Shown here: positions 93 to 64,000 of the stretch, one piece after another
Layout: the number at the start of each line of letters is the position of its first letter
How positions within the stretch are numbered: position 1 is the first letter of the stretch
Virus record (IMG/VR): IMGVR_UViG_3300043603_000010
Location: 1-64,000 of that record
Direction: 5' to 3' (one strand)
DNA length: 64,000 nucleotides
From: a virus
Taxonomy: Duplodnaviria; Caudoviricetes
The notes under the pieces: model-generated
Database searches by the model: none
Seen by the model: the letters and a program-made list of their open reading frames with translations, nothing else
What the model was told of the DNA's origin: nothing
Translations under genes and position numbers: made by a program

Positions 93-692
93 GTGCAGTC
101 CTCCAGTGCTGCCTCCGTCGCGGTGGCGTTCGTCAGGGCCCGGGTCGGCGGCAGCTACCGCTACGGCGGCAACGGCCCGGCCTACGACTGCTCCGGCCTG
201 ACCCAGGCGGCCTGGGCGGCGGCCGGAGTGGACATCCCGCGCACCAGCCAGGAGCAGCTGGCCTCGCTGCCCCGGGTCAGCCTGTCCGCGCTCCAGCCCG
301 GTGACATCGTGGGCTACTTCGGCGGCAGCCACGTCACGGTCTACGTGGGCGGCGGCATGGTCGTCGGAGCAGAGAACCCGGTCACCGGGATCGCCCTGAT
401 CCCGCTCAGCTGGGGCCACCAGGTGCCGTACACCGCCGTCCGGCCGTCCGGCGGGGTCGTCACCCGCACCGTCAACGTCCCGGCCACCCGGGCGCAGGGC
501 GCCCCCCAGGCAGCCCTGCCGCACAAGGCCCTGGCCAAGGGCACCCACACAGTCCGCTCCGGCGAGTGGCTGTCCTCCATCGCCCGGGAGTACCACGTGG
601 CCGGGGGCTGGCAGAAGCTCTACCAGCTGAACAAGGGCGTGGTGGGGGGCAACGCAGACCTGATCTACCCTGGGCAGGTGCTCACGCTGTAG
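93..692 (+). CDS. NlpC/P60 peptidoglycan endopeptidase with C-terminal LysM (true start may lie upstream)
   Basis: YRYGGNGPAYDCSGL and SHVTVYVGGG NlpC/P60 motifs; HTVRSGEWLSSIA...LIYPGQVL LysM. Confidence 0.9.
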   Translation: MQSSSAASVAVAFVRARVGGSYRYGGNGPAYDCSGLTQAAWAAAGVDIPRTSQEQLASLPRVSLSALQPGDIVGYFGGSHVTVYVGGGMVVGAENPVTGIALIPLSWGHQVPYTAVRPSGGVVTRTVNVPATRAQGAPQAALPHKALAKGTHTVRSGEWLSSIAREYHVAGGWQKLYQLNKGVVGGNADLIYPGQVLTL

Positions 693-4953: not shown

Positions 4954-5128
4954 CCGGCGACGTCCGCAGGTCGGTGTACCTGCGCAACCGCTCCGTACTC
5001 ACCCCGCGCCAGCGCCGTCGGATCCGGCACAAAGTCAACCGCTCGCTGCGCCCGCTATCCTGAGCGCACCTCGCCACGTCACCGCACGACCGCGTCCGGA
5101 AACCGCGCACCGTGCGGGCGAGCGGGCA

Positions 5129-5165
5129 CAGAACCCCTGCCTCCCCGTCATCGGCAGGGGTTCTG
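5129..5165 (+). terminator. Hairpin between lysin region and terminase
   Basis: CAGAACCCCTGCC...GGCAGGGGTTCTG 13-bp stem. Confidence 0.55.
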
Positions 5166-5189
5166 CTGCGTCCGGGGCAGACTGATCGT

Positions 5190-6548
5190 GTGAGCCAGGA
5201 CGCCCAGAAGGTTGCAGCCAGGGCCGCAGCCCTGCTGGGTGAGCGGATTGCTCTGCTGCGCCAGCCCGGATGGCAGCCGCTGCCGCACCAGACGCCTCCC
5301 CCTGGCAGCTGGTACGGCTGGTTGCTGCTGGCCGGGCGAGGCGCGGGCAAGACGGACGCCTGCGCGCACTACGTGGCGGAGCACGTGAAGGGGCCGCCGT
5401 GCATTCCCGGGCCGGTCCCGCACTGGATCGGGATCATTGCTCCGACCCTCGGGGACGCGGCTACGTCCTGCGTCAACGGCCCGTCCGGGATCAAGGCGCA
5501 CAGTCCTGATGCCCGGATGGTGAACCGGCCCGGCGGCCTGTCCGTGGTCTGGCCCAACGGCAGCGAGGCGAAGCTGTTCGGAGCCAACACGGAGGAGGAC
5601 ACGGAACGCCTGAGGTCCGGTGGCAACCGGTGCCTCGCGTGGCTGGAGGAGCTGGCCGCGTGGCGCTGGCAGGACGCGGCGTGGGCGCAGATGCGGTTCG
5701 GCCTGCGCCTCGGGGTGCGCCCGCACTGGATCGGGTCGACCACTCCGAAGCCGCGCCCGCTGATCAAGCGCCTGGCCAAGCACGAGATCAACGACGTCAC
5801 CCTGTCCCGGGCGTCGATGTACGACAACCCGCACCTGCCGCTGCACATCCGCCAGGCGCTGGAAGACGAGTACTCCGGCACGCAGCTGGGCCGCCAGGAG
5901 CTGATGGCGGAGCTGATCGATCAGGACGAGAACGCGCTGTGGACCCATGAGCGGATCGACTTGGCCCGGTGGCAGTACGCGGACCTGCCGGACCTGAAGC
6001 GGATCACTGTCGGCGTGGACCCGTCCGGCGGAGCCGGGGAGCAGGGCATCGTCGTGTCCGGCCGGGCGCAGCTGCCGCGCAACGACACCGACCGGCGGCT
6101 GCTGCACCACGGGTTCGTGCTGGCGGACCGGACCGTCCACCTGTCCCCGGACCAGTGGGCGCGGCGCGCTGTGCAGGCGGCTGTCGACTACGAGGCCAAC
6201 GACATCTGCGTAGAGATCAACTACGGCGGAGACATGGCGGTGTCGACCATCCGGTCCGCTGCCGACGACATGGGTGTGCCGATCCCGATCCGGATCGTCC
6301 GGGCTACCCGGGGCAAGGCGATCCGCGCGGAACCGGTGGCCGCGCTGACGGAGCAGCTCCGCTGGCACCATGCCGGGCAGTTCCCCGAGCTGGAGGACCA
6401 GCTCTGCACCTGGCACCCCGATCTGGACTGGAGCCCGGACCGGCTGGACGGGATGGTCTGGACCGCGTGGCACAACAAGGTCGTCCACCTGCCCCCGGGA
6501 CTGGCGGGCAAGGGGCTGGGCCGGGTGCCGTCGCGGCAGATCGGGTGA
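5190..6548 (+). CDS. terL: Terminase large subunit
   Basis: Walker A LAGRGAGKT, Walker B WLEELAAW, motif STTP, nuclease VGVDPSG, SPDRLD; likely GTG start at 5190. Confidence 0.93.
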   Translation: MSQDAQKVAARAAALLGERIALLRQPGWQPLPHQTPPPGSWYGWLLLAGRGAGKTDACAHYVAEHVKGPPCIPGPVPHWIGIIAPTLGDAATSCVNGPSGIKAHSPDARMVNRPGGLSVVWPNGSEAKLFGANTEEDTERLRSGGNRCLAWLEELAAWRWQDAAWAQMRFGLRLGVRPHWIGSTTPKPRPLIKRLAKHEINDVTLSRASMYDNPHLPLHIRQALEDEYSGTQLGRQELMAELIDQDENALWTHERIDLARWQYADLPDLKRITVGVDPSGGAGEQGIVVSGRAQLPRNDTDRRLLHHGFVLADRTVHLSPDQWARRAVQAAVDYEANDICVEINYGGDMAVSTIRSAADDMGVPIPIRIVRATRGKAIRAEPVAALTEQLRWHHAGQFPELEDQLCTWHPDLDWSPDRLDGMVWTAWHNKVVHLPPGLAGKGLGRVPSRQIG

Positions 6549-59180: not shown

Positions 59181-60059
59181 TCAGTCGGCGAAGGCGCGCC
59201 GGACTCCTTCGTCCAAGGAGACGGCCGGGGTCCAGTACTGCGCCATCAGCAGCGGGTCCCCCACCCGGCTGAGCACTCCGGCAGGGGCTGAGGGATCCCC
59301 GATGATCTCCGGTTCGTACCCGGCCTCGGTGCAGACCCGGCGGGCCAGCGCGTAGAAGCTGGTGCCGGAACCGGTGCAGATGTTGATCGGCCCGTCCGCT
59401 CCGGCGGAGACGGCCGCCAGCGTGCCGTTCACCACGTCGTCCACATGGACGAAGTCCCGGACGCAGTGGCCGCACCACAGCCGGAACGGGTCCTCCTTCT
59501 TCTTCGCCCGGTCCACGAACGCGCGGAACGGGTAGTCCGCGTCCTGGTCGGACCCGTAGCCGGAGAACGGCCGGACCACGGTGACCGGGACTCCGGCTTC
59601 GCGCAGCCGCTGGCACAGGATCTCACCCATGACCTTCGTCCAGCCGTACACCTGGTCCGGCTGCATCACGTCGTGCGGCAGGTAGACGTCGCCCTCCTTC
59701 AGGCGGGACCCGTGGTTGCGCTGGTAGGCCACCGGGTACGCGGCGCTGCTGGAGAGGTAGAGCACCCGGCCGGGCTCCGCCACGGCGGCCCAGCGCAGCA
59801 GCGCCGCGTCCAGTTCCAGGTTGACCGCCGTGGCCAGGGGGTCACCGTCGATGACCGCCCGTCCCCCGACCACGGCCGCACAGTGCACCACCAGGTCGAA
59901 CGGCTCCACCTTCGCGCCGGTGCCTCGCAGCCAGTCCCGGACGTCCTGGGACGGGGAGTGCCGGATGTCGATCCCGGTCACCGCGTACCCGCGCTGCTTC
60001 AGCTCTGCGGTGAAGTGCCGTCCCAGGAACCCGGCGTCGCCGGTGACCAGTGCACGCAT
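59181..60059 (-). CDS. NAD-dependent epimerase/dehydratase (extended SDR)
   Basis: ALVTGDAGFLG, LSSSAAY, YGWTK (YxxxK), RPFSGYG, RDFVHVDD. Confidence 0.92.
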   Translation of the reverse strand: MRALVTGDAGFLGRHFTAELKQRGYAVTGIDIRHSPSQDVRDWLRGTGAKVEPFDLVVHCAAVVGGRAVIDGDPLATAVNLELDAALLRWAAVAEPGRVLYLSSSAAYPVAYQRNHGSRLKEGDVYLPHDVMQPDQVYGWTKVMGEILCQRLREAGVPVTVVRPFSGYGSDQDADYPFRAFVDRAKKKEDPFRLWCGHCVRDFVHVDDVVNGTLAAVSAGADGPINICTGSGTSFYALARRVCTEAGYEPEIIGDPSAPAGVLSRVGDPLLMAQYWTPAVSLDEGVRRAFAD

Positions 60060-60127
60060 GGAAGAGCCCCTCACGCCGTGGATGCTCTCCGCAGCGTAAG
60101 GGGCGGGTACTCCGGGCTGTGCCCGGG

Positions 60128-60721
60128 TCACCAGCGTTCGGGCGACCCCGAAGTGTTGCCGGTCGATCCGGGTCCGTGGTTCCAGTACCAGGTGCGCCGG
60201 TTCAGATGGACGAACTGCGCGCCTTCGGCCAACATCGCCCGCCAGGCGCCCCAGTCCTCGTTCGGGTTGTCCGACGGCCCCAGCGGCTGGAAGCCCCCGA
60301 CGTCCCGCAGCAGGTCCGTGCGCACCAGGACGGTGACCGGGATGTAGTTGCGGCGCTCCAGTTCGGAGGCGCTGAACGGCTGACCCTCCATGTCACCGAA
60401 CGGGTCGAAGCCCCCGACCACGGTGAACCAGGGGTAGACCAGGTCGGCGCCGGTGGCGTTCTGGAGGGCGAACATGCGCTCCAGGTGCTCCGGGTCCCAC
60501 CAGTCGTCATCGTCCAGGAACGCGGTCCACCGGGTGTCGACCATGGCCAGTCCCCGGTTGCGAGTGGCCGCACCGCCCTCCCGTCCGTGGTCGGTCACGG
60601 TGACCAGCGCGTCCGGTCGCAGCGTCTGCATCAGGACGGAGTCGACCGCCCGGTGCAGCTCCTTGTCGGCGCGGGGCGGAATCGAGGGGATCACAGCGGT
60701 CACGCCGGGGCGCAGAGGCAT
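60128..60721 (-). CDS. Glycosyltransferase family 2
   Basis: VTAVIPS...RAVDSV...GGAATRNRGL...AFLDDDD...EDWGAW. Confidence 0.88.
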   Translation of the reverse strand: MPLRPGVTAVIPSIPPRADKELHRAVDSVLMQTLRPDALVTVTDHGREGGAATRNRGLAMVDTRWTAFLDDDDWWDPEHLERMFALQNATGADLVYPWFTVVGGFDPFGDMEGQPFSASELERRNYIPVTVLVRTDLLRDVGGFQPLGPSDNPNEDWGAWRAMLAEGAQFVHLNRRTWYWNHGPGSTGNTSGSPERW

Positions 60722-61335
60722 CAGTTCACCAGCCACATCTGTGTAGGGACCACGTCGGGGGTCAGGTACTCCGGTGTGAAGACCTGGTGCGCCACGGTGC
60801 GGGCGAATCCGGCCGCCGTGAGCATCGCGCCCACGGCAGGGGAGTCCCAGCCCCAGTAGTGCTCCGGGTTTCCGTGACCGGTCTCCCCTTCGGGAGTGGT
60901 CAGCACCAGGTACCGGGTGAGCGGCCGGAGCATCCGCAGGAAGGCGTCCGGATCGTCCAGGTGCTCCAGGGTCTCCGAGCAGACGAAGAGGCACTGCCCT
61001 TCACCCATCATCCTCAGCGTGCCCGGCAGGGAGCCGACCACGTCCAGGCCGAACCGGCTCGATTCCCCGTTGACGTCGCCCAGGAACGGGGGCTGCCCGG
61101 TACTGAGCCGGGCTGCCAGGGAGATCGTCAGCATTCCGTCCCCGCAGGACAGGTCCGCGATCCGGAAGACCGACGGCTGACCCCGGTCGGACGCCAGAGC
61201 CGCCACGGTGAATTCCACCGTGGCCTTCACCCGTTCTTCGTGGTCGGGCCACCAGGTGTGGTCGTAGCCGCTCGGGTAACGGTCGGTGTAGAACGCGGCG
61301 GTGTCGTCCACGGCGGGCCGCAGCCTGGTCCTCAT
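60721..61335 (-). CDS. Class I SAM-dependent methyltransferase
   Basis: IADLSCGDG; CSETLEHLDDP; LVLTTP; NPEHYWGWD. Confidence 0.85.
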   Translation of the reverse strand: MRTRLRPAVDDTAAFYTDRYPSGYDHTWWPDHEERVKATVEFTVAALASDRGQPSVFRIADLSCGDGMLTISLAARLSTGQPPFLGDVNGESSRFGLDVVGSLPGTLRMMGEGQCLFVCSETLEHLDDPDAFLRMLRPLTRYLVLTTPEGETGHGNPEHYWGWDSPAVGAMLTAAGFARTVAHQVFTPEYLTPDVVPTQMWLVN

Positions 61336-61979
61336 ACCGCCACCGCCGGACCGATGGCCTGGACGACCTGGAACAGGCCGACTTCCGCCTGCTCGGTGAG
61401 CTGCCATCCGGCACCGTTCAGCATGTCCCGGTACCCCTGCGCGTCCCAGGCCCAAGCGTGCTCCGGGCTGTGGCTGGCCGGGCTCTCGTTCCACGGGGAG
61501 GAGCAGACCAGCTGCTTCACCCCGCGCAGCAGCAGCCTCCGCAGCACACCGTGCGGGTCGGCCAGGTGCTCCAGCACCTCGGTCATCACCACGACGTCCC
61601 CCAGCGCGGTCTCGGACCAGTCGGCTCCGAAGACGTCGCGTGCGTACGCCTGCACCCCGCGCTCGGTCCATCCGGCAGCGTTCGCCGGGGCGAAGTCGTA
61701 GCCCCAGCACTGCCCCAGGTCCGGACTGCCCTTCAGCAGAGAGAGCAGCCCGCCGTCCCCGCAGCCCAGGTCGGAGACGGTCAGCGGGACGAAGTCGGTC
61801 ATGCGCCAGGCAGCGGCCTCCCGGTGGCTGCGGCCGAAGTCCCGGACGAACGCGGCGGCCTGCCGCAGCCGGGGGACGTGGAACTCCTGCTCCAGGTGCG
61901 GGGCGCGCTCCCGGTCGGCGTGGAACTCCGGCGTGCTGACGTACGGCACGTCCCCCTCGAACAGCCTGTACTCGGTCAC
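61332..61979 (-). CDS. Class I SAM-dependent methyltransferase
   Basis: SDLGCGDGG; WGYDF; TEVLEHLADP; SPEHAWAWD. Confidence 0.88.
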   Translation of the reverse strand: MTEYRLFEGDVPYVSTPEFHADRERAPHLEQEFHVPRLRQAAAFVRDFGRSHREAAAWRMTDFVPLTVSDLGCGDGGLLSLLKGSPDLGQCWGYDFAPANAAGWTERGVQAYARDVFGADWSETALGDVVVMTEVLEHLADPHGVLRRLLLRGVKQLVCSSPWNESPASHSPEHAWAWDAQGYRDMLNGAGWQLTEQAEVGLFQVVQAIGPAVAV

Positions 61980-62662
61980 AGCCCGTACTCCTCCTTCACC
62001 CGGTCCACGGCCCGCGCGAACCGGCCGTCCGAAACGAAAGCCTCCCATGCGGCACGGTCGGCGGTGTCCACGGAGGGCGCGTTCACTTCCGCGTACCGGT
62101 CGTCCCACGGCGCGGTTCCGCCCACCGGGTGCAAGTGCTCGATCACTACGTCCGGCAGGTGGACCAGACCGCCCAGAGCCTGCCCCAGGGCGAGCCAGAA
62201 GTTGTCGGCATACAGATGCGTGAGCACCGGCGGGGCGAAGAACCCCAGCGCGGTCACGACCCGGGACGGCATGAACACGGCCGTGGGCAGGTTCGCCCCC
62301 TGGATCCGGTCGTCGCCGTAGACCACGGCCGGGCCCTCGCGGTCCAGCGCGCTCTGGACGGCGGTGTCCCAGTGCTCGGTGCGCGGCAGGTGGTCATCCC
62401 CCATGAAGCCGATCCACGGGTACCGGTCGGCGTACTTCAGCGCCACCTGGTTCAGCGTGCCGACCAGCCGCAGCCGGGGGCCCATCGCCACCCGGTCCAG
62501 CCCGATCTCCAGGTAGCGGCCCCGCTCGGGGTCGTCGTCGTCCAGCGCGTACAAGAAATCGGCGCACCTGGAATGGGTCTCCAGGCGCGCCGTCTCCAGT
62601 CGCCGGACGTTATCCGGTCGCCCCCGGGTGGGAACGACAACGAGAATACGTCCTTTGCCCAT
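61976..62662 (-). CDS. Glycosyltransferase family 2-like
   Basis: ILVVVPTRGRP...LDDDD...FMGDDH...HLYADN...IEHLH. Confidence 0.85.
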   Translation of the reverse strand: MGKGRILVVVPTRGRPDNVRRLETARLETHSRCADFLYALDDDDPERGRYLEIGLDRVAMGPRLRLVGTLNQVALKYADRYPWIGFMGDDHLPRTEHWDTAVQSALDREGPAVVYGDDRIQGANLPTAVFMPSRVVTALGFFAPPVLTHLYADNFWLALGQALGGLVHLPDVVIEHLHPVGGTAPWDDRYAEVNAPSVDTADRAAWEAFVSDGRFARAVDRVKEEYGL

Positions 62663-62664
62663 GT

Positions 62665-63099
62665 TCAGTCCTTCTCCCTGTTGGACGGTGCCTTCCAGGC
62701 GGCAATTCCCAGCACCGCCACGATTCCGAGAGCCAGCACGGACCCGGCCATGGCCTGGAATCCGGCGACGACCGTCCCGAACAGCGCCATCGCCAGGAAG
62801 ACGACAGCTGCCACTGCTCCCAGCACGATAGCGACAGCTCCCGCAGCGAGCGGAATCCCGACGAATCCGAGAATGACCCACTGCCCGTGCTTGTCCAGCG
62901 GACCCGCTTCCTTTTCAGCGGGCGGAGCCTGTGGCGGGGCGGCGTGGTAGTGGACGTGCACGCTGGACCCGCCCGACGGCGGCACCCCGTGCGGGTACCT
63001 GCTCAGCGCAGCGGCTTCCCGGATGGCCCGGGACACCTGGTCCTGCGCGGGCAGGTCCGGGTCGTAGGGCTCGATCTCCCCGTACACCGGCTCAGGCAC
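62665..63099 (-). CDS. Membrane protein, SpdD-like (plasmid spreading) candidate
   Basis: Pro-rich N-terminus, VHVHYH, two C-terminal TM helices. Confidence 0.5.
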   Translation of the reverse strand: MPEPVYGEIEPYDPDLPAQDQVSRAIREAAALSRYPHGVPPSGGSSVHVHYHAAPPQAPPAEKEAGPLDKHGQWVILGFVGIPLAAGAVAIVLGAVAAVVFLAMALFGTVVAGFQAMAGSVLALGIVAVLGIAAWKAPSNREKD

Positions 63100-63376
63100 G
63101 GCGCCGCTCCTTCCGCAGTTCGGCCCAGGCGGTCACCAGGTAGATGCCCAGGCACAGCATCACGTCGGCCGCCAGCAGCATGACCTCCGCCTTGGCGAAC
63201 GCGTCCGTGCGCATCGGCGGGTTGTGCGCGCCGGTGTAGGACGCCAGCACCAGGAACGCGACGATGCCGAGCACCCAGTGCACCCCCCGGGCCGTCCGGG
63301 TGGCGAACCCCTTCCGGACGATGTCGTTCACGGTCCAGCGGGCCTGGTGTGCCGCCTTGCGGCGGATCTCCTTCAT
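63092..63376 (-). CDS. Two-TM membrane protein
   Basis: GAAGGAGGAACGATC-ATG; two hydrophobic helices. Confidence 0.65.
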   Translation of the reverse strand: MKEIRRKAAHQARWTVNDIVRKGFATRTARGVHWVLGIVAFLVLASYTGAHNPPMRTDAFAKAEVMLLAADVMLCLGIYLVTAWAELRKERRRA

Positions 63377-63449
63377 GATCGTTCCTCCTTCTTGTCACAT
63401 TCGTGTCGCACGCCGTCTGACGCGAGACCCTTCTTAAGGCCAGATGCCG

Positions 63450-63525
63450 TTTGACAGCTCCTGACACGCTCTGACAGACCCTGGACAGACACTGACAAAC
63501 AGGTCACGTCTGACAGGCTCTGACA
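63450..63525. repeat. Phased TGACA direct repeats (clt-like)
   Basis: TGACA at 63452, 63462, 63472, 63493, 63511, 63521; GGACA at 63483. Confidence 0.75.
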
Positions 63526-64000
63526 TCATCCGCCGTAGCCGTTGACCGACCGCAGCTGCGTCCGGATCCGGTACAGCGCCTTGCCGTCGCCCTCTTCCAG
63601 GACTCCGGTCTCCAGGAGGCGCTTCAGTTCGTCGTAGACCCAGGTGCGGCCCTTGCCGATCTCCGCCACCCAGTCCTTGAAGTCCGATCCCCGGACTTCA
63701 AGGACGCCATCGGCAGCCATCTCTTCGATCTTCATGGCCAGCGCTTCGCGTGCTTCGTCGGCGCCCACCACCTCCTCCGGTGCGGCCTGCGGCAGGTTGC
63801 CGATAGCTCGGACCGGCGGCAGTTCCTGAGTGATGTCCACAGGTCCGTCCTCCGTCTCCTTGACCAGTTCAGGTCCCTGAGTCTCTTCGTCGGCGTCTTC
63901 GTCGGTGCCGTCCGGCATGTCGACCGGGACCAGCGGCAGCCTCGCCGTGATCGCCTGGTCGGTCAGGCTCGGGATCCCGGCTCCGAGCCGCATCTTCGTG
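63526..64000 (-). CDS. C-terminus of a TraB/FtsK-like DNA translocase (partial, extends beyond window)
   Basis: Acidic linker then winged helix EVRGSDFKDW...GKGRTWVYDELKRLLETGVLEE...YRIR, resembling Streptomyces plasmid TraB C-termini. Confidence 0.55.
   Translation of the reverse strand, partial: TKMRLGAGIPSLTDQAITARLPLVPVDMPDGTDEDADEETQGPELVKETEDGPVDITQELPPVRAIGNLPQAAPEEVVGADEAREALAMKIEEMAADGVLEVRGSDFKDWVAEIGKGRTWVYDELKRLLETGVLEEGDGKALYRIRTQLRSVNGYGG

Follow-up and report, generated by a model that had tools for sequence, protein, structure and literature searches.

A tailed phage known from the IMG/VR virus record IMGVR_UViG_3300043603_000010 appears to carry a genuine TraB-clt module of the type that transfers double-stranded DNA (dsDNA) in Streptomyces. 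The 64,000-nt stretch analyzed here (the window) comprises bases 1-64,000 of a single 90,647-bp contig with 68.9% G+C. Near its end, a gene for an FtsK-like translocase (traB) is followed by a phased array of short repeats and by two genes for small membrane proteins. We estimate a probability of about 0.68 that these parts form a working TraB-clt module, through which the phage would send its dsDNA over a membrane or septum. Coordinates of all features are collected in Table 1.

A full-length TraB-type translocase in a tailed phage

Only the 3' part of traB lies in the window. The original prediction had read this fragment as the C-terminus of a TraB-like translocase and had called for a check of the upstream sequence for an FtsK-type ATPase and transmembrane segments; the complete 660-residue open reading frame (ORF) contains both. 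The protein matches the NCBIfam model plasmid_TraB (NF041214) over positions 8-635 of 639 with an E-value of 1.9e-101 and a score of 340 bits, compared to an equivalog cut-off of 800 bits for this family. A tblastn search retrieved 48 actinomycete plasmid records, mostly from Streptomyces and most of them annotated as traB, with 26-36% identity over ~90% of the length. The experimentally characterized TraA/TraB of plasmid pWTY27 is 27% identical to the phage protein end to end (E-value of 2e-41).

The motor motifs are intact. Walker A reads GAPNAGKT, and Walker B together with the catalytic glutamate lies within VVVDFEE; Gly273, Gly278, Lys279 and Glu372 are invariant across an alignment of 26 TraB homologues. 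A profile built from this alignment has the FtsK motor (2ius) as its best sequence match in the PDB, with an E-value of 6e-6. The AlphaFold (AF2) model, with a predicted local distance difference test score (pLDDT) of 76, consists of membrane helices, a mixed domain, the motor, a linker and a winged helix. When this model was searched with Foldseek, FtsK motor domains ranked at the top (E-value of ~1e-13 for ~400 columns), followed by TcpA, which is a conjugation coupling protein, and EccC/EssC. We conclude that the phage ORF is a full-length TraB-type translocase, with membrane helices, an FtsK motor with intact Walker A and Walker B motifs, and a winged helix.

The C-terminal domain modeled alone reaches a pLDDT of 82. 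All of its top Foldseek neighbors are winged-helix DNA-binding domains with probabilities of 0.9-0.99, but with E-values of at least 0.026; the closest folds, again with weak E-values, belong to the IclR, GntR, DtxR and FadR families, and FtsK-gamma is absent from the top matches. The winged helix that had been proposed around the motif GKGRTWVYDELKRL is thus recovered in the model as an H-H-H-beta-beta fold, with the motif contributing the probable recognition helix.

The replicon itself is a real tailed phage with a complete virion module, in agreement with the earlier description of this DNA as phage. CheckV completeness of the record is 100%, and the window encodes a terminase, portal, MuF/protease fusion, major head protein, head-tail adaptor, tape measure and endolysin. 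The remainder of the genome encodes a primase-helicase, PolA and an intein-bearing helicase; the last is a DEAD/ResIII helicase gene at genome positions 73376-76216 (L001:11376-14216) that contains a HINT/intein insertion. The host appears to be a Streptomyces-like actinomycete.

A phased repeat array directly behind traB

Seven copies of TGTCAG or of its variants TGTCCA and TGTCAA are packed into 75 nt on the coding strand, the first TGTCAG beginning 1 nt past the TGA stop codon of traB. Read on the plus strand, they start at 63452, 63462, 63472, 63493, 63511 and 63521 (TGACA) and at 63483 (GGACA). The seven copies, their spacings of 10, 10, 11, 10, 18 and 10 nt and the minus-strand consensus TGTCAG are exactly those given in the original prediction. 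The array sits in a 149-nt gap (63377-63525) that separates traB from the next gene.

This array is not a product of chance. The whole genome contains eight copies of CTGACA on the plus strand, five of which fall between 63461 and 63525; five of eight copies would land inside 65 nt by chance with a probability of about 7e-11. In the rest of the genome, CTGACA/TGTCAG is found eight times on both strands together, compared to 28-46 occurrences expected under Markov models of orders 0-3. The word is 3-5 times rarer than expected there and is apparently avoided. The array has the position, number and phasing of a clt locus, and the retention of its position in relatives (see below) supports this assignment.

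A second repeated word was observed upstream. The palindrome TCCGGA forms three clusters of 6, 5 and 7 copies at genome positions 66123-67450 (L001:4123-5450), in and around a 502-residue ORF with a T5orf172/MUG113 domain located two genes upstream of traB. The genome contains 99 copies in total, compared to about 31 expected, with 23 in one 5-kb bin. The word is not common to the relatives and is specific to this genome; the clusters could be iterons, a centromere or the sites of another protein.

Repeat words of relatives and their co-variation with the winged helix

We compared 30 loci from IMG/VR and 13 loci from isolate genomes that encode TraB relatives. Five of these (L005, L007, L011, L014 and L015) carry 5-9 copies of TGTCAG, 10-13 nt apart and starting 1-7 nt past the traB stop codon, with one or two extra copies past the conserved box described below and before the next gene. 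Other relatives have different words at the same place, namely TGATCA, TGTCAC or TGTCGG/CGTCAG; relatives from Embleya and Yinghuangia have GTGCGCAC, and chromosomal Streptomyces elements have CCTGACACC, which is identical to the word of pWTY27. The position of the array with respect to the traB stop codon is kept across relatives whose TraBs are only 35-45% identical.

A hexamer array, defined as any hexamer present at least four times in the 142 nt past the traB stop codon, was found in 18 of 36 non-redundant loci, compared to 7.7% of control windows (binomial probability of 2e-11). Of the 36 downstream windows, only three reach the top 1% within their own locus. As low-complexity coding windows score high too, the largest number of hexamer copies in a window discriminates poorly, and the enrichment in 18 of 36 loci is therefore the fairer summary.

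The word content behind traB follows the winged helix. In partial Mantel tests, which leave shared ancestry partly in, it is correlated with the winged helix when the motor is controlled for (r of 0.30, p of 5e-4), compared to a correlation with the motor of only 0.06 (p of 0.17) when the winged helix is controlled for. This co-variation supports a pairing of winged helix and repeat, short of proof. The clade also provides natural pairings between winged helices and words (TGTCAG, TGATCA, TGTCGG and TGTCAC) from which the reading of DNA by TraB might be decoded.

Lineage and plasmid traits

All 20 IMG/VR records that encode TraB and have a completeness of 90% or more contain a portal orthologue with 49-62% identity, and the TraB and portal distances are correlated (Mantel r of 0.78, p of 2e-4, n = 13). 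Thus, TraB has long resided in this phage lineage and did not arrive by a recent insertion. A clade of phages of 75-99 kb, with at least 21 near-complete genomes, retains it. More distant portal relatives, which were found in IMG/VR with an alignment (a search with the single portal sequence gave none), include four complete genomes of 67, 71.5, 78.5 and 122 kb that do not contain TraB.

Two subgroups can be distinguished within the clade, and TraB is kept in both. Members of the 90-99-kb subgroup mostly encode a tyrosine recombinase and often ParA. This subgroup includes pS1D4-14.2 and whole-element contigs in two more cultured Streptomyces. The 75-90-kb subgroup, which comprises the phage studied here and its nearest relatives, has neither tyrosine recombinase nor ParA. 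The scan of isolate genomes found TraB relatives of the phage at no more than 36% identity, as is typical for the ParA-plus subgroup and for the chromosomal elements; of the two subgroups, only the ParA-plus one was encountered in the isolate genomes searched.

Candidates for plasmid maintenance in the genome studied here are confined to a ParB_N-domain protein and the phage's own primase-helicase and PolA. Among its small regulators, a PHROG scan recognized neither a repressor nor any other lysogeny function.

The conserved box and the downstream genes

Table 1. Positions of the features discussed, numbered from the first base of the window and continued along the genome beyond 64,000.
Feature	Position	Strand	Remarks
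traB, 660 aa	63526-65508 (L001:1526-3508)	minus	3' end in window, rest beyond
3' part of traB in window	63526-64000	minus	residues 504-660 of 660; in the ORF list, 63526-63999 runs off the window
Four N-terminal hydrophobic membrane helices	TraB residues 14-119		AF2 model, pLDDT 86-90
FtsK-type motor	TraB residues about 262-510		AF2 model, confidently modeled
Disordered acidic linker	TraB residues 517-577		AF2 model
Winged helix	TraB residues 583-648		AF2 model, three helices and two strands
Winged-helix coding region	63565-63762	minus	AF2 model, H-H-H-beta-beta, pLDDT 80-90
Probable recognition helix	63616-63657	minus	residues 621-634, in GKGRTWVYDELKRL
Candidate clt	63451-63525	minus (coding strand)	seven phased TGTCAG/TGTCCA/TGTCAA copies; TGACA/GGACA on plus strand
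Conserved box CTGGCCTTAAG(A)	63430-63446	minus	between array and next gene
Outlying degenerate copy CGTCAG	63417-63422	minus	between conserved box and ribosome-binding site of next gene
94-aa protein gene	63092-63376	minus	two hydrophobic helices; preceded by GAAGGAGG
144-aa protein gene	62665-63099	minus	SSVHVHYHAAPPQAPP with VHVHYH, Pro-rich stretch, then three hydrophobic segments
Glycosyltransferase-like gene	61976-62663	minus	VVPTRGRP motif; 2 nt past stop of 144-aa gene
Terminase gene	5112-6548
Small winged-helix protein gene	68905-69162		TrmB/MarR-like
Replication genes	about 73-84 kb
ParB_N-domain protein gene	87312-87989

A conserved box, CTGGCCTTAAG, follows the array. Related boxes (ctggccTAAGAc, gacctaagac and ctggccttaggg) occupy the equivalent place in the five relatives with TGTCAG arrays, with TAAGAC and TAGGGA as variants, and are kept though the TraBs of these relatives share just ~40% identity. 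The box is preceded at a distance of 11 nt by an inverted TGACAC in several relatives. The box may be a -10-like element of an unusual promoter.

Both membrane-protein genes that had been noticed previously, one of them with a Pro-rich stretch and VHVHYH, were found; they encode proteins of 94 and 144 residues, and the start of the second gene overlaps the end of the first by 8 nt. Most of the relatives viewed have the same gene order: traB, array, a two-helix protein of 65-94 residues, an H-x-H protein of 124-168 residues, and a glycosyltransferase. The 124-168-residue protein of relatives combines a VHIHHH-type motif with a Pro-rich stretch and membrane segments. tblastn detected weak homologues of the 144-residue protein at the same position in L005, L011 and L014, and gave no match in the relatives for the 94-residue protein. 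In the alignment of the larger membrane protein (A3), which is too variable to serve as a genome-scan profile, both histidines of the H-x-H motif and one proline are nearly invariant. The histidine cluster, H-x-H(-H-H-Y), suggests that this protein binds metal.

These two proteins had been described as Spd-like, a label that can be retained in part. Their position, size, membrane character and translational coupling agree with it: they are small membrane proteins, translationally coupled, beside traB, and their position is kept in relatives. Neither protein has detectable homology to the known Spd proteins SpdB2, SpdB3 and Spd79, and no Pfam, NCBIfam or PHROG family was found for the two proteins or for 10 positional homologues. 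The ESM Atlas gave leads only, in the form of unnamed actinomycete clusters and DUF6251 at 0.85. Therefore, we regard the two proteins as Spd-like by analogy and not by membership.

The glycosyltransferase-like gene opens a block on the same strand (59181-62663) that encodes the glycosyltransferase, two class I methyltransferases, a GT2 protein and an NAD-dependent epimerase. Both pS1D4-14.2 and IMG/VR relatives keep the block in synteny with traB, and the pS1D4-14.2 counterpart of its first gene carries the annotation glycosyltransferase family A protein. The block might serve to modify glycans or the cell envelope.

Proposed function of the module and alternative explanations

Taken as a transfer module, the locus would operate as follows. 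TraB would be anchored in the membrane by its N-terminal helices and assemble as an FtsK-like ring. The C-terminal winged helix would dock on the phased TGTCAG array, which would act as clt in cis, and the motor would pump unprocessed phage dsDNA over the membrane or septum into a neighboring hypha or compartment. Help would probably come from the two small co-transcribed membrane proteins, in the way that Spd proteins help plasmids. The module might serve either a plasmid-like prophage, in conjugation as in pZL12 and probably in the ParA-plus subgroup, or an infecting genome, in mycelial spread.

Several observations weigh against such a transfer module. The TraB score lies far under the NF041214 cut-off, and Pfam, including FtsK_SpoIIIE, gives no significant domain for the protein at all, so that it would be missed by Pfam alone. 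Half of the relatives have no strong hexamer array in the 142 nt past traB. The co-variation of word and winged helix retains part of the shared ancestry, and, as the winged helix physically adjoins the repeats, linkage alone could yield some of it. The 18 TCCGGA copies, 2.6-3.9 kb upstream of the array, are denser and offer an alternative candidate binding target. Finally, the genome has no match to ParA (PF01656, PF13614) or to a tyrosine or serine recombinase/integrase, and no match anywhere to GntR/TraR (PF00392), the type of regulator behind kil-kor control in most plasmids. The usual plasmid context of traB is thus absent, and the genome does not establish a plasmid lifestyle. The interpretation originally offered for this locus is supported for the full-length TraB, the clt-like repeats and the phage replicon. 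The two membrane proteins are Spd-like by analogy only, and the suggestion that the phage may be a phage-plasmid or conjugative prophage is plausible.

The lack of maintenance genes keeps alive the option that the module spreads an infecting genome. In its strongest form, this proposal holds that the phage is not a plasmid-prophage and that TraB pumps replicating dsDNA via septal cross-walls or hyphal contacts, aided by the clt array and by both membrane proteins, which would represent a new family. We regard this form as speculative and, on balance, unlikely. If true, it would amount to virion-independent spread within the mycelium, comparable in logic to the movement proteins of plant viruses, and it raises the question of whether a phage that has no plasmid-maintenance genes can pass the septa of a multicellular host with a conjugation pump.

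Among explanations without DNA transfer, the one that survives best gives the array a chiefly regulatory role, as operator or promoter of the operon of membrane-protein and glycosyltransferase genes, and not that of a transfer origin; its ligand would be TraB, acting as autoregulator, or a different DNA-binding protein of the phage. The location in the gap before the next gene, the conserved CTGGCCTTAAG box that follows, the one or two further copies right before the ribosome-binding site and the nearby gene for a TrmB/MarR-like winged-helix protein are in line with such a role. It is nonetheless a doubtful account of the array: scans of 62600-64000 detected no consensus sigma-70-type promoter, terminator or Rfam family, the array abuts or overlaps the traB stop codon as in the functional clt of pWTY27, and its words track the winged helix of TraB. 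Regulatory and clt roles are compatible and not exclusive.

TraB might instead act inside the cell, either segregating genomes through closing septa into spores or compartments in the manner of FtsK/SpoIIIE, or excluding incoming DNA. Its fold and motifs are those of FtsK, it is kept in ParA-plus and ParA-minus subgroups alike, and another segregation device would be useful to a genome without a ParA partition ATPase. We consider this improbable, as the closest characterized relatives of TraB are all conjugative and chromosomal segregation of the FtsK type needs no dense array at a single locus; moreover, pumping DNA through a septum from one compartment into the next does not differ in mechanism from intramycelial spreading. 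It is very improbable that the repeats, independently of TraB, serve as a packaging (pac) site or as iterons of a replication origin: short phased repeats are typical of both and TGATCA, found in some relatives, is also the word at the P1 pac site, but the terminase and replication genes are both far from the array (Table 1), and the array holds its place at the traB stop codon despite the divergence of the TraBs.

If the TraB-clt module works as a transfer system, a clade of soil actinophages would have two routes of spread, virions and contact-dependent pumping of dsDNA. The second route, if true, would alter views of host range, receptor-based resistance and gene flow in Streptomyces communities.

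Comparison with known systems

TraB of the phage shares with FtsK/SpoIIIE the motor fold, the Walker motifs and a C-terminal winged helix, which in the phage protein would likewise read short words of DNA, but is only about 14% identical to these proteins. In conjugative plasmids, clt consists of direct 8-bp repeats that are read by the cognate TraB (Thoma et al. 2015, PMC4447253). In pSVH1 (Reuther 2006; Vogelmann 2011; Thoma 2015, PMC4447253), a single FtsK-like TraB uses its C-terminal winged helix to bind direct repeats of 8 bp, a scheme that the phage locus resembles, and small membrane proteins are likewise encoded in a translationally coupled operon (PMC4447253). Unlike pSVH1, the phage has no detectable homologue of SpdB2, SpdB3 or Spd79 and no GntR-type TraR, and its repeat word is different. 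The word of pSVH1 is reportedly GACCCGGA.

The 14-kb theta plasmid pWTY27 also encodes a full-length TraB homologue with membrane helices, motor and winged helix. Its clt comprises 16 bp within traA and the neighboring 159 bp, with four TGACACC repeats; binding was mapped by footprinting, and transfer depends on the locus (Wang et al. 2012, PMC3583192). In the pWTY27 sequence (NC_013667.2), these repeats straddle the traA stop codon and run into non-coding DNA. Both loci have short direct repeats with a TGACA core at the stop codon of traB/traA. In the plasmid, the coding strand carries four TGACACC copies, accompanied by CCCGCCC and inverted repeats, whereas the phage has seven or eight copies of TGTCAG, with the TGACA core thus reversed in orientation, and a replicon of 90.6 kb. 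A gene annotated in RefSeq as 'phage major capsid protein' lies ~800 bp downstream of traB and clt on pWTY27 (L144:2843-3701; NC_013667.2 10642-12102).

The closest relatives in cultured bacteria belong to the same lineage. In pS1D4-14.2 (NZ_CP041606.1, 98.8 kb) from Streptomyces sp. S1D4-14, the portal is 53% and TraB 36% identical to those of the phage. This element and those of Streptomyces sp. NRRL S-455 and S. africanus are syntenic with the phage for traB, repeats, small genes, glycosyltransferase, methyltransferase and epimerase. They differ from it in carrying ParA and a tyrosine recombinase and in the words TGTCGG/CGTCAG, and the TraB of such elements is annotated only as a hypothetical protein. 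A literature search, which was incomplete, returned no paper calling this clade or pS1D4-14.2 phage-plasmids.

The closest functional precedent is pZL12. pZL12/phage ZL12 is reported to unite plasmid and phage in one replicon that carries a tra locus (Zhong et al. 2010, J Bacteriol 192:3747, cited in PMC3583192 and PMC4487206), and its transfer requires the major tra gene and two adjoining genes (PMC3583192). Like the phage studied here, pZL12 (GQ919031) is a ~90-kb replicon with virion genes and an FtsK-like transfer gene. It has ParA, ParB, an integrase and a GntR regulator, whereas the phage has no ParA, integrase or GntR, and the neighbors of its tra gene encode 766 and 398 residues, compared to 94 and 144 residues in the phage. 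pZL12.71c is a remote relative of the phage TraB (hhalign probability of 96%, E-value of 5e-9; BLASTP not significant). The possibility that the genome studied here is pZL12 or a close relative, suggested by their similar sizes, was ruled out, given that tblastn gave no TraB match in the phage collection that includes pZL12 and the phage backbones are unrelated. Separately, SpdB2-like proteins of actinophages have been proposed to spread phage DNA (Thoma et al. 2015, PMC4447253). Thus, the idea of a phage with a transfer locus is not new, being already known from pZL12 and from this proposal.

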